Assembly (NCBI GenBank): GCA_964387885.1
Contig: CAYLYZ010000001.1
Location: 175,903 to 239,902 of the forward strand
Length of the DNA stretch: 64,000 bases
Source of the DNA: an uncultured bacterium
GTDB lineage: Bacteria > Electryoneota > AABM5-125-24 > Hatepunaeales > Hatepunaeaceae
Direction: 5' to 3'
Part shown: one piece after another, positions 12,219-15,867 of the stretch
How positions within the stretch are numbered: the first letter of the stretch is position 1
Layout: every line of letters begins with the position of its first letter
Notes under the pieces: generated by a model
What the model was told of the DNA's origin: nothing
Databases searched by the model: none
Seen by the model: the letters and a program-made list of their open reading frames with translations, nothing else
Position numbers and translations under genes: made by a program

Positions 12219-12254
12219 GCTCAAGCGGACAGGAATGTCCGCACTTCCCTTGAG
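12219..12254. promoter_or_regulatory. Nested perfect hairpin/palindrome ctcaag-GCGGACAggaaTGTCCGC-acttcc-cttgag, about 105 nt upstream of xseA.
   Basis: I read the inverted repeat directly. The core GGACAGGAATG.CCG recurs in both terminal repeats of the 14380-14749 element. Confidence 0.4.
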
Positions 12255-13268: not shown

Positions 13269-13459
13269 ACTTACCTCCGTATATTTCCGTAAAAACTGTA
13301 ACTTTAGAAGATAAACCATAATCCCGTCTCCTGCAAGCTATTTTGTGCTAACTATTAACAGAAAAGCAGTTATAATACAGTATTATTTAATATTTATTCA
13401 TTTGATCTTATCCTTTCCATTCACTATTTTGATATCAATAATCAAAAACAGGAAGATCC

Positions 13460-14359
13460 TTGCGCAAAATCATCGTCGGAAGCAGAGGCAGCGAGCTGGC
13501 ATTAACACAAACAAAAACTGTAGTTGATGCCATCCAGGATAAAACAAACCTTAAATGTGAAGTGCGTGTAATCAAGACTAAAGGAGACCTTGACCAGGTT
13601 AATCCCCTCGCATCAATCGGAGCTACAGGCTTGTTTACGCGGGAAATAGAGACACAATTATTAGGCGGAGACATAGATGTCGCCGTACACTCCCTTAAAG
13701 ACCTGCCACTTCTCCAGCCCGAGGGATTGATGATTGCCGCTATCTCAAAAAGGGTAAACCCGGCAGATGTCCTCGTAATTTCTCCGGATGTCTTTCAGTC
13801 TGACAGGCCAGAAATACCCTTAAAAGCCGGATCTACAGTCGGGACTTCGTCTATGCGACGAAAATCTCAAATACTAAGAATGCGAGATGATCTCCAAATA
13901 GAACCGATTCGCGGAAATGTAACGACACGATTGGATAAAATAGCAAAAGGAAAATATGGAGCATCGGTTTTTGCTGCGGCTGGATTGGAAAGGCTAGGTT
14001 TGAACCTTGATAATTTCAAAGTATTCGAACTTAGCTGTGATGAGTTCCCACCTGCCCCGGGTCAAGGAGCACTTGCTATCGAAATGCGGGTAGATGACCC
14101 GGATCTTGGAAAAGTAAATCAGACACTCAACGATGACTCAACCTCAGAATGTGTCCGCGCCGAACGTGAAATTCTCGCTCTTTTCGGCGGGGGATGTTCT
14201 CTGCCATTGGGCGTATTGATTGAATACTACTCCGGTGCATATCACCTTACGGGATCATATCAAACGGAAAAGATATTCAGAAGAGCGAAATTTGAGGATA
14301 AAGATATTAAGACCGGCGTTGTAAGACTGCATAAAGAACTGTCCGGTGAAGGCACCTGA
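13460..14359 (+). CDS. hemC: Porphobilinogen deaminase (hydroxymethylbilane synthase).
   Basis: Motifs IIVGSRGSELALTQT, LFTREIETQLLGGDIDVAVHSLKDLP and the C-terminal GGCSLPLG cofactor Cys are present. Confidence 0.9.
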   Translation: MRKIIVGSRGSELALTQTKTVVDAIQDKTNLKCEVRVIKTKGDLDQVNPLASIGATGLFTREIETQLLGGDIDVAVHSLKDLPLLQPEGLMIAAISKRVNPADVLVISPDVFQSDRPEIPLKAGSTVGTSSMRRKSQILRMRDDLQIEPIRGNVTTRLDKIAKGKYGASVFAAAGLERLGLNLDNFKVFELSCDEFPPAPGQGALAIEMRVDDPDLGKVNQTLNDDSTSECVRAEREILALFGGGCSLPLGVLIEYYSGAYHLTGSYQTEKIFRRAKFEDKDIKTGVVRLHKELSGEGT

Positions 14360-14379
14360 CAGCACTCCTCACCGGAAAA

Positions 14380-14749
14380 AGTAGGATCGGCATTCCTGCC
14401 TGTCCATCCCGCACAAGCGGGAACCTAAGTTAGGATTTACTGAAAAAATCATGATGTTTGATTTTCGCACATGCTCGTTTATTACCCCCTCTTTAATCCC
14501 CCTCTGCAACAGCAGGGGAAGAGACCATTCTCCCCCCTTCTATTGAAGGGGGGAACTAAAGGGGGGTTGAGTTACCAGATTAATGCAATCTATTTCACTG
14601 AAAAGGTAATTATCCCTGCACCTAATAACTGATTTTCATGGTTTAACTCTTGTAGATCATAATATTATGACTTATTCAGCAAACACTAAGTTAGCAAACA
14701 CACGACTCCGTCTATCGACGGATGGTCGGACAGGAATGACCGTCCTACT
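14380..14749. mobile_element. MITE-like non-autonomous element of ~370 bp with ~33 bp imperfect terminal inverted repeats, inserted between the convergent hemC and C_GCAxxG_C_C genes.
   Basis: The left end AGTAGGATCGGCATTCCTGCCTGTCCATCCCGC aligns with the reverse complement of the right end, AGTAGGACGGTCATTCCTGTCCGACCATCCGTC. The interior has no ORF but has strong C-run/G-run hairpins such as TCCCCCCTTCtattGAAGGGGGGA. Confidence 0.5.
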
Positions 14750-14751
14750 GA

Positions 14752-15591
14752 TTAATTCTTCAACACTTCAATGAGCTCCTCGCACCCACCTTCAGCTAAA
14801 TAACCTGCATGATCATTGACATTCTCAAATTTCCGACCGACAATTTCGGAACATTCAAATTTGTAATCTGTATGTTTCAGAAATCTCTCTATCAGTTCAA
14901 TCGCCTTAGGATCTTTAAAATCCATCTTAATGTCTTCGTCTTTGCCCTTTTTTACCCCATTAATCCATATCGCAGCCCCAAGTGCTCCACAAGCACCACC
15001 GCTCAAGCCAATTCCACCGGCAAATCCGGATGCCATTACCGTCTGCAGGTCGGAGAGACCTGCTTTTTGCGCTAATACTGCTGCACAACTCACTGGAAAG
15101 GAAGGCGCATCGACATTATCTTCGGAAAGAGCGGTATTTATGTCATTGTAAGCAATTGGGGCGTATCTTGCTGACATGCGGAGGCAACCGATTGTTCCTC
15201 CTTTTATGAGGAAGAACTTGATCATCTTCCAGGTTGAGGATGACTTGTCAATATCGGTTATTTCGAGGCAGTTTATGGTGTTTTCGCGTGTTCTGAATGA
15301 ATCCACAACCATTTGTGAAGCAAGAAGTGCCATTGTTTCTGCTTTCGCACCTGCACCAAAGCGTTTATGTGCCTCAGCCCCGGCTGCCAGGGCTGCTCCC
15401 CAGATCATTCCGCATTGATACCCATGCTGCATTATACCGCCTGCCAGGGGCATAGAAGCATTCTCCTCAAGCTTCAATGGGTGATCAAAAGCCCGGTCAA
15501 GAACGTTGACAATTGTCTCCGAGCATGTCCCAACCTTCATGAAGGTACGCATTGCCCGCATTGACGGTATGTTGTTTTTAGCTTTTGCCAT
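14752..15591 (-). CDS. C_GCAxxG_C_C family protein (putative redox-active protein, duplicated module).
   Basis: The signatures GYQCGMIWGAALAAG and GGACGALGAAIWING (GCAxxG), then CSEIVGRKF and GGCEELIE, are present in a 279 aa protein. Confidence 0.7.
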   Translation of the reverse strand: MAKAKNNIPSMRAMRTFMKVGTCSETIVNVLDRAFDHPLKLEENASMPLAGGIMQHGYQCGMIWGAALAAGAEAHKRFGAGAKAETMALLASQMVVDSFRTRENTINCLEITDIDKSSSTWKMIKFFLIKGGTIGCLRMSARYAPIAYNDINTALSEDNVDAPSFPVSCAAVLAQKAGLSDLQTVMASGFAGGIGLSGGACGALGAAIWINGVKKGKDEDIKMDFKDPKAIELIERFLKHTDYKFECSEIVGRKFENVNDHAGYLAEGGCEELIEVLKN

Positions 15592-15686
15592 CAGGTTTCT
15601 CTTTAATTATTGTCAAATGCATTAGTTCAGAATTATAGCATTCCCAAAAGTACTGAAGGATGTTAGTCAACGCGAGAAACGAAGTG

Positions 15687-15787
15687 ACGAAGCGATCTGT
15701 TTGAATATATGCGACATAAGAGATTGCTTCACTGCGTTCGCAAAGACTATGCTTTCAATAAATGCTAAAAAACACATTTCCACTTTT
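15687..15787. repeat. Copy 1 of a ~100 nt conserved intergenic element (core AGAGATTGCTTCACTGCGTTCGCAAAGA), ~130 nt upstream of the C_GCAxxG_C_C gene start.
   Basis: It aligns at ~80 % with 49263-49380. The 28 nt core differs at a single position. Confidence 0.6.
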
Positions 15788-15867
15788 AGACCTTCTTCAA
15801 CATAACGGTGCGCATCGACGATTTGTTCCGATGGATTGTGATTTATTTACCACGAAATTTAATCAAT

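Follow-up and report, generated by a model that had tools for sequence, protein, structure and literature searches.

The DNA analysed here (the window) is a 64,000-nt stretch of contig CAYLYZ010000001.1 from an uncultured bacterium of the Electryoneota. It contains a 370-bp element at positions 14380-14749, lying in the 392-nt spacer between hemC and a convergent gene of the C_GCAxxG_C_C family. We conclude that this element is probably a dimer of GTAG-type repetitive extragenic palindromes (REPs), related in form to the doublets termed REPINs and to BIMEs (the interspersed mosaic elements of bacteria), in which the two REPs are inverted with their GTAG heads outside and the whole has taken on an expanded palindromic form. 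The arms belong to a dispersed family that is linked to RayT transposases, that habitually forms such dimers, and that is found preferentially at the ends of genes.

A first-pass annotation had described the element as a possible MITE (a miniature transposable element of the inverted-repeat type) with imperfect terminal inverted repeats (TIRs). Its coordinates and its description of the element are correct; the arms at 14380-14409 and 14720-14749 are each 30 nt in length, are 80% complementary and are separated by 310 nt. The open reading frame (ORF) coordinates confirm the placement, with a gap of 20 nt between the end of hemC at 14359 and the start of the element, and one of 2 nt between its end and the TAA stop codon of the C_GCAxxG_C_C gene (14752-14754, i.e. 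14754-14752 on the minus strand). No target-site duplication had been seen, and the 10-nt flanks CACCGGAAAA and GATTAATTCT indeed contain no common direct repeat. The interior was said to contain no ORF and to have strong hairpins made of C-runs and G-runs; only ORFs of 46 and 53 aa are present, and the 10-bp hairpin TCCCCCCTTC-tatt-GAAGGGGGGA at 14531-14554 is perfect (100% complementary). A coding role for the 53-aa ORF was rejected, as its sole match among 1.84 billion proteins is an unrelated repeat protein, with no meaningful homologue. The designation as MITE-like holds only in part. The element is indeed small and non-coding, has inverted repeats at its boundaries and belongs to a transposase-dependent dispersed family, but its ends are REP units rather than the TIRs of a MITE mobilized by a DDE transposase.

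The ends of the element are two-hairpin REP units

Each of the supposed TIRs is a 45-nt REP unit, in which a GTAG head is followed by a 9-bp hairpin closed by a TTCC loop and then by a further hairpin that covaries. The left unit (14380-14424, plus strand) resembles type A of the family, defined below. Its GTAG head occupies 14381-14384, and the stem of hairpin 1 is formed by 14384-14392 pairing with 14397-14405, closed by the TTCC loop at 14393-14396; there is one T.G wobble and one C.T mismatch in this stem. Hairpin 2 follows directly at 14406-14423, with the sequence ATCCCGC-ACAA-GCGGGAA. As single-stranded DNA the unit has a predicted folding energy of -12.0 kcal/mol (z = -3.6). The right unit (14705-14749) resembles type B and is read on the minus strand, with its GTAG head at 14748-14745, hairpin 1 at 14745-14724 with two mismatches in the stem, and hairpin 2 at 14723-14706 with the sequence ATCCGTC-GATA-GACGGAG; it folds as single-stranded DNA at -10.9 kcal/mol (z = -3.1). 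Both arms have the palindrome with 5' GTAG that characterizes a REP, with a stem of 9 bp, a TTCC loop and one or two mismatches.

Assignment of the arms to the family is made using an independent profile of the 45-nt unit, constructed from 16 sequences that all come from other samples or metagenomes and none from the window. Searched with nhmmer, this profile matches over its full length at 14380-14422 on the plus strand (E = 2.4e-10) and at 14749-14707 on the minus strand (E = 2.7e-13). The two-hairpin structure is well supported by covariation. In an alignment of 15 units 93.8% of the cells are paired and seven pairs exhibit compensatory changes on both sides, while in a control in which the pairing partners were slid by one to three columns only 23-43% are paired. 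The window arms are decayed relative to other members of the family, in that stem pairs have been lost in both hairpin-1 stems.

A dispersed family with a nearly invariant core

The positions common to both arms define a core pattern, AGTAGGANNGNCATTCCTGNCNGNCC, with 20 specified nucleotides, for which about one match would be expected by chance in a scan of one genome per species of the Genome Taxonomy Database (GTDB). At least 120 loci were found in these genomes, distributed over many phyla and often with several loci in one genome. The loci listed come from at least ~59 assemblies (counted by accession prefix), which are species-level genomes. The matching core is nearly identical among these loci, as AGTAGGACAG(A/G)CATTCCTG(T/C)CTGTCC; the 25-nt core may be written GTAGGAC(A/G)G(A/G)CATTCCTG(Y)C(Y)GTCC, and the single-stranded consensus form of the family REP is GTAGGTCAGGCATTCCTGCCTGACC.

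Roughly a dozen phyla carry the core, and some of the loci lie on contigs of megabase scale. Among the matches listed, carriers on the side of the Acidobacteriota are Pyrinomonadaceae, Blastocatellia, Chloracidobacterium and Bryobacteraceae. The Planctomycetota listed include Kuenenia, Gemmataceae and a 4-Mb Mariniblastus contig, and there are also Verrucomicrobiales (Verrucomicrobiota), Lentisphaerae (Lentisphaerota) and Kiritimatiellae. The remaining carriers among these matches are Calditrichaeota, Sumerlaeales (Sumerlaeota), Zixibacteria, Edwardsbacteria, Nitrospinaceae (Nitrospinota), Ignavibacteria and one Bacteroidetes bin. At least 4-10 separate loci per genome are present in JBOGOP01, DASYMB01, JAXMBW01, DATMDU01 and others. 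In the 64 kb available for the genome of the window itself there are the two arms and one weak relic. The core was found at two loci only in viral contigs, so that phages are not an obvious carrier. Core 22-mers were not found among 8 million full texts of the literature, a comparison that did not extend to the consensus figure of 24 published GTAG families, where an earlier description is possible.

Hairpin 1 of the family is 91% paired, with compensatory changes. When hairpins were detected by loop and pairing alone, so that GTAG was not required, NGTA-G nevertheless preceded 270 of the 282. Stem positions 3, 5 and 7 covary between A-T, T-A and G-C, and position 4 is either C-G or T.G. The T.G wobbles of the family are confined to the GTAG strand.

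Extending the core by its next six bases, CCATCC, in a scan of metagenomes identified 42 loci, many of them from Ga0233430/31/37, and two of these are identical to loci of the Calditrichaeota metagenome-assembled genome (MAG) co234_bin30. In these loci the unit is 45 nt in length, GTAG and hairpin 1 being followed by ATCC-NNN-loop-NNN-GGAT. Arms of type A (GGATAGGCA...TGCCTGTCC) and type B (GGTTGGACA...TGTCCGACC) are paired in inverted orientation with GTAG outside, as compact doublets of 115-140 nt in co234_bin30 and Ga0233430/31/37, with spacers of 25-60 nt that differ from copy to copy.

We note that direct arrays also occur. One Ga0233430 contig (L149, 100-430) has four two-hairpin REP-like units in tandem, head to tail, two of them with a variant hairpin 1, GTAGAACAAGCGTCCCTGCTTGTT. 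In Candidatus Kuenenia (L085, 7061-7373) three direct copies of the core are spaced by 94 and 193 nt, each with the same upstream flank of ~25 nt, which points to a tandemly duplicated longer unit.

The family is linked to RayT transposases

The substrates of RayT (TnpA_REP) enzymes, of the HUH/Y1 class, are single-stranded hairpins, and no target-site duplication results from their action. When all the ORFs of the 120 loci were clustered, no gene family was found to recur next to the arms, as expected for dispersed REPs. The link to RayT comes from ORFs read directly from the loci; in four independent places (L070, L075, L168 and L172/L173) the same core was found on both sides of a RayT gene. 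A RayT gene flanked by the same REPs constitutes a REPtron (PMC6006769). In a member of the Planctomycetia (L070) an HUH-Y1 gene has one doublet upstream and another at its 3' end, and in a member of the Pyrinomonadaceae (L075) a frameshifted HUH-Y1 gene has doublets on either side. Three homologues of the L070 protein taken from the protein database are also flanked by the core; one (L168) has three doublets upstream and four downstream of the gene, and the other two (L172 and L173) each have a single REP upstream of the gene and a doublet downstream of it. The core does not flank three further homologues, which are more distant (45-47% identity).

The flanked proteins match Pfam Y1_Tnp and contain HVH (HuH) and Y..NP motifs. 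Homologues of the L070 protein are labelled 'REP element-mobilizing transposase RayT' by JGI, and the only match of these proteins in the Protein Data Bank is E. coli TnpA_REP (4ER8), in an alignment that takes in the HuH and Y..NP motifs. The core is less diverged than the RayT proteins adjoining it, those of L070 and L075 having 36-42% identity. The first-pass annotation had proposed a search for a cognate transposase with matching ends. RayTs flanked by the same core are indeed found in other genomes, but no DDE partner was found at the loci searched, and the window contains no RayT.

We observe that REP copies at these loci can be translated within called ORFs (L070 823-900 and 2442-2492; L075 3049-3078), giving peptides such as VGQAFLPD, GECQAGMPDI and MRTGKNACPT. 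One L070 doublet lies inside a restriction-enzyme-like ORF of 1090 aa, the frame of which is unbroken.

By analogy with the REPtrons of E. coli, Stenotrophomonas and Marinomonas, from which the mechanism is carried over, RayT would bind the single-stranded GTAG-plus-hairpin, cleave next to it and rejoin the DNA, and REPs or REP doublets would spread in this way without target-site duplication. Binding and cleavage of single-stranded REP by RayT have been demonstrated for the REPtrons of E. coli, S. maltophilia and Marinomonas only (PMC8266576). Past mobilization of the window copy would have followed the same route. The missing target-site duplication fits the action of an HUH/Y1 RayT on single-stranded hairpins, and assignment as a REP dimer explains the absence of both a target duplication and an ORF.

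Dimers and the long form of the element

A total of 346 REP instances was taken from loci L006-L167. Inverted dimers with GTAG outside are the dominant arrangement of neighbouring copies; 89 of these have a spacer of 150 nt or less (median 35 nt), and six have spacers of 162-371 nt. In published REPs the corresponding 'HH' dimers predominate, with spacers of 20-100 bp and sites downstream of convergent ORFs, according to the accounts that also define REP, REPIN and REPtron (PMC3733652, PMC6006769, PMC8266576). The window dimer has 318 nt between its cores and so falls into the long tail of the family distribution. Its two inverted REPs can form one long hairpin, as in a REPIN. The intergenic stretch of 392 nt folds with z = -7.9 on the plus strand and -9.0 on the minus strand relative to shuffled sequence, and the minimum free energy fold brings the two ends of the element into pairing. 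The short, family-typical spacer and the many similar copies of a whole doublet that also characterize REPINs are not seen here.

The element has a layered plan, in which the REP units enclose an AT-rich inverted repeat of ~38 nt, and this in turn encloses a centre of ~190 nt with C-run and G-run hairpins. The left copy of the inner repeat (CTAAGTTAGGATTTACTGAAAAAATCATGATGTTTGAT, 14425-14462) was identified by local alignment to the reverse complement of the right copy (14656-14694), with a score of 31; shuffled sequences give 15.7 +/- 2.2 with a maximum of 25, and none of 300 reaches 31. The central hairpin complex (14484-14567) has outer arms ACCCCCTCTTTAATCCCCC and GGGGGAACTAAAGGGGGGT that enclose the perfect 10-bp hairpin, and folds with z = -4.3 on the plus strand and -3.7 on the minus strand.

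Long palindromic elements of 210-420 bp bounded by REPs are present in other genomes. All six of the long dimers elsewhere have inverted symmetry inside the spacer (z = 7.8-20.7), and the window element has z = 5.8. In the genome of Pyrinomonadaceae SE1493 three loci (L011, L116 and L066) hold one element of ~290 bp bounded by REPs, in copies that have diverged to 73-84% identity; the element has an inner inverted-repeat module that is also found in other Pyrinomonadaceae. It follows that the family repeatedly takes a long, MITE-like form with REPs as its termini, in at least some cases with several copies; since such elements are multi-copy in one Pyrinomonadaceae genome the MITE-like architecture is real for the family. 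The inner module is rich in TTTCCATTTGTCATTTG motifs (L011 5905-5945, L116 7325-7400 and L066 3231-3357) and is often nested within REP dimers. Modules rich in TTTCCATTTGTCATTTG also occur in L015, L038, L061, L078, L092, L097 and L054, and may represent a separate repeat family or an array of protein-binding sites.

An alternative origin for the long spacer is that a compact REP doublet of ~115-140 nt later received a nested and unrelated insertion of ~190-260 nt containing the C-run/G-run centre, the spacing then being secondary. Compact doublets with the same A and B arm types and spacers of 25-60 nt do exist, and the centre differs in composition from its surroundings and forms its own self-contained hairpin complex. 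Moreover, two contigs assembled independently from different samples (L004 and L005) both stop at exactly 14474, at the edge of the centre just before its C-runs and G-runs; this shared break could stem from a repeat boundary, from a structural variant or from sequencing drop-out. Yet the inverted symmetry does not end with the REP units but extends into the spacer, and all six of the long dimers elsewhere are alike in this, which speaks for long palindromic bodies as a native form. Nor was a copy of the centre found elsewhere, and there are no visible scars of insertion. We consider such a composite origin unlikely.

Position at the ends of genes

The REPs of the family are strongly biased towards the 3' ends of genes. 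GTAG has the end of a same-strand ORF (100 codons or more) between -6 and +10 nt in 111 of the 346 instances, compared with four of 346 when ORFs of the opposite strand are counted. Of 268 testable cases, 57 have a 100-codon stretch upstream without a stop in the frame in which the TAG of GTAG is read, and the other two frames are open in 20 and 18, i.e. about three times fewer. The TAG within the GTAG head often serves as the stop codon of the upstream gene, and we note that orthologous genes of two Pyrinomonadaceae (L017 and L063) both end in this manner. The idea that GTAG is a target for insertion, which might have explained the coupling to stop codons, was dropped, as GTAG is the guide sequence and cleavage occurs at the neighbouring CT or CA (PMC8266576).

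In the window, GTAG begins 21 nt beyond the hemC stop codon in the left arm and 3 nt beyond the TAA stop of the C_GCAxxG_C_C gene in the right arm. As the heads are directed outward between convergent genes, both mRNA species would carry a REP unit in the sense orientation, each ending in a sense-strand REP stem-loop at these distances from its stop codon. REPs at the 3' ends of mRNA are known to protect them and to influence termination. The element now probably supplies 3'-untranslated stem-loops to both its neighbours, as judged by analogy with these REPs. In one survey most REPs lie between convergent genes and downstream of ORFs, and their G.T pairs are taken as a hint of function at the level of RNA (PMC3733652).

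The element could instead be a structured non-coding RNA, or a bidirectional terminator or insulator, that evolved in place for the two convergent genes with no history of mobility. The first-pass annotation had mentioned a small RNA or terminator cassette as its second option. Both strands are predicted to form a very stable structure (the z-scores of -7.9 and -9.0 given above), and the element is located exactly between two stop codons. The T.G wobbles of the family on the GTAG strand only, and the strong sense orientation to upstream genes, are in keeping with such a role, and the sequence of the element is identical in all contigs and samples of the population. Against this, a search of the element region against Rfam at E <= 1 returned two spurious miRNA models only, far below threshold, so that a known RNA family was rejected for want of a match at the gathering score; a scan of the whole window and of 18 family loci gave nothing but tRNAs. 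No T-tract terminator is present, the arms are members of a family that is dispersed in many copies and has a link to RayT, the interior is conserved at none of the loci searched, and the relatives lack the whole locus. An origin of this kind is improbable. As a secondary role of the element, the function of a small RNA or terminator is conceivable, but it does not explain the arms.

Comparison with known mobile elements

REPs, REPINs, BIMEs and REPtrons have been well described, including in Planctomycetes and Verrucomicrobia. The closest resemblance is to the GTAG-type REPs and BIMEs with TnpA_REP/RayT, such as the E. coli REPtron (4ER8). As described in the survey by Di Nocera et al. 2013 (PMC3733652) these share with the present family the 5' GTAG preceding an imperfect palindrome, compensatory variation and G.T pairs in the stem, inverted dimers with the 'HH' form predominant, and sites between convergent genes and downstream of ORFs. 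A further shared property is the presence of the same repeats on either side of RayT genes. By contrast, the unit here comprises two consecutive hairpins over 45 nt, its core is nearly invariant across many phyla whereas known ones are specific to a species or genus, and the window spacer of 318 nt exceeds the known range of 20-100 bp. Cleavage of the present family by RayT is a prediction made by analogy with REPtrons of the E. coli type.

The REPINs of Pseudomonas fluorescens likewise have two inverted REPs and a spacer forming one long hairpin (Bertels & Rainey 2011, PMC3116915). That hairpin is considered to be the replicating unit, and is non-autonomous, dependent upon a single-copy RayT and without target duplication (PMC3116915). 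REPINs are ~100 nt in length with hundreds of near-identical copies per genome (PMC3116915), whereas here there is one copy of 370 nt in 64 kb, its arms are 80% complementary and no RayT is seen in the window. IS200/IS605 elements and their miniature derivatives (palindrome-associated transposable elements, PATEs) share the HUH-Y1 enzyme, subterminal single-stranded hairpins with a 5' guide tetranucleotide, and the lack of target duplication. Their ends are not mutual inverted repeats, however, and they carry tnpA and tnpB, whereas here the same unit is inverted and the RayT is a class-2 (Y..NP) enzyme lying outside the element.

Classical bacterial MITEs (Correia, ERIC/IRU and RPE-type) share the size of ~100-400 bp, TIRs, intergenic location, strong folding and lack of coding sequence, but their target-site duplications and the TIRs of DDE insertion sequences are not found here. 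That the whole 370 bp is a deletion derivative of an insertion sequence, mobilized in trans by a DDE transposase acting on double-stranded TIRs of ~30 bp and present as many near-identical copies, is very improbable, for despite the terminal inverted repeats, inverted symmetry that reaches ~85 nt inward, an intergenic and non-coding location, the break of two assemblies inside the element and the multi-copy long elements bounded by the same arms in a Pyrinomonadaceae genome, target-site duplication is missing, the sequences searched contain no further copy of the complete unit, the arms are autonomous units of GTAG plus hairpin that usually stand alone or form short doublets, and the only transposase genes found flanked by the arms encode HUH-Y1 RayT and not a DDE enzyme. 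The count of copies that had been proposed as a check of mobility was negative for the unit as a whole, which is absent from the rest of the window (searched by BLAST and by pattern), from the 120 genome loci and from the 42 metagenome loci; the arms alone recur.

A number of observations weigh against the assignment as a REP dimer. The hairpin-1 stems of both arms contain mismatches, so that RayT might no longer recognize them. The spacing of 318 nt is far beyond that usual in REP dimers, 20-100 bp. BLAST of the interior (14443-14702) against the 120 genome loci and 42 metagenome loci gave no match; lacking a relative in any of these, the interior may be unrelated DNA or a nested insertion. 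No RayT gene was found in the 64 kb of the window, nor any further arm beyond the single weak relic. Two syntenic relatives lack hemC, the element and the C_GCAxxG_C_C gene alike, and so provide no empty site. As regards a role in RNA, a scan of the element for promoters and terminators gave nothing, including no T-run terminator. The preferred assignment remains that of a REP dimer, of which the window copy would be an expanded form, arising from an old insertion and now immobile. It is probably a relic, old and inactive, because stem pairs have been lost in both arms, there is one copy in 64 kb, and there is no RayT in the window.

The locus and its relatives

The element is flanked by hemC (hydroxymethylbilane synthase, PF01379; 13460-14359, plus strand), the gene upstream of the left arm, and by the C_GCAxxG_C_C family gene (PF09719; 14752-15591, minus strand), which is the gene upstream of the right arm and is convergent with hemC. 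The organism is a marine member of the Calditrichota, and the contig derives from samples SUTE22-1/SCRA20-1. The DXS protein of the window is 85% identical to that of a MAG designated "Calditrichaeota bacterium". In the two syntenic relatives (L174 and L177, with DXS 84-85% identical) the gene order is S8 peptidase, S8 peptidase, HU, metallophosphoesterase, xseA, xseB and dxs. At the site in question the S8 peptidase gene is followed directly by that for HU, with a spacer of 160-324 nt (L174 7016-7339, L177 7107-7266). We note that the L174 spacer holds decayed REP-like hairpins, GGTTCGGACATTCTTGTCCGTC. A segment of ~2.4 kb (~13396-15867) containing hemC, the element and the C_GCAxxG_C_C gene is thus specific to the lineage of the window. 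The nearest homologue of its HemC is just 49% identical, and because there is none closer, comparison of the sequences suggests that the segment was acquired.

The weak relic is a possible decayed single REP hairpin, GCGGACA-TTCC-TGTCCGC, at 12223-12247 on the minus strand in the spacer between xseA and the metallophosphoesterase gene. It lacks a GTAG head and scores only E = 0.11 against the 45-nt profile with nhmmer, so that the evidence is weak; the orthologous spacers of the relatives are rearranged at this site.

A different hairpin repeat, unrelated to the REPs, lies at 15640-15760 between the start of the C_GCAxxG_C_C gene and the stop of an S8 peptidase gene (GTCAACGCGAGAAACGAAGTGACGAAGCGATCTG ... 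AGAGATTGCTTCACTGCGTTCGCAAAGAC). A homologous copy adjoins a gene for a secreted protein on the Ga0233430 contig mentioned above (L149 740-845), and a Logan contig of the window locus (L002) terminates within the repeat at ~15707. This looks like another dispersed repeat family.

Significance of the family

For annotation, a definite assignment, that of a dimer of REPs from a RayT-linked family, takes the place of "possible MITE or sRNA". There is also a practical warning, in that REP hairpins break assemblies and give rise to spurious peptides in gene calls, such as VGQAFLPV and RQECLTY. The near-identity of the core over about a dozen phyla, the two-hairpin variant of the Calditrichota and the frequent role as a stop codon may be new. 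The core often abuts or supplies a stop codon, and in some genomes it ends palindromic elements of 200-400 bp.

REP-RayT systems have been described as lineage-specific, co-evolving and mainly vertically inherited. We suggest tentatively that the core represents a single REP family, almost unchanged in at least ~59 species-level genomes of about a dozen phyla. This would mean that a single REPtron lineage has passed between phyla more than once, or else that a conserved host function at the 3' ends of mRNA keeps the hairpin constant. If true, either option would contrast with the accepted picture of lineage-specific and mainly vertical co-evolution. Such a cross-phylum core would be a useful test case both for the spread of REPtrons and for the retention of REPs through host functions such as protection of mRNA 3' ends and termination of translation.

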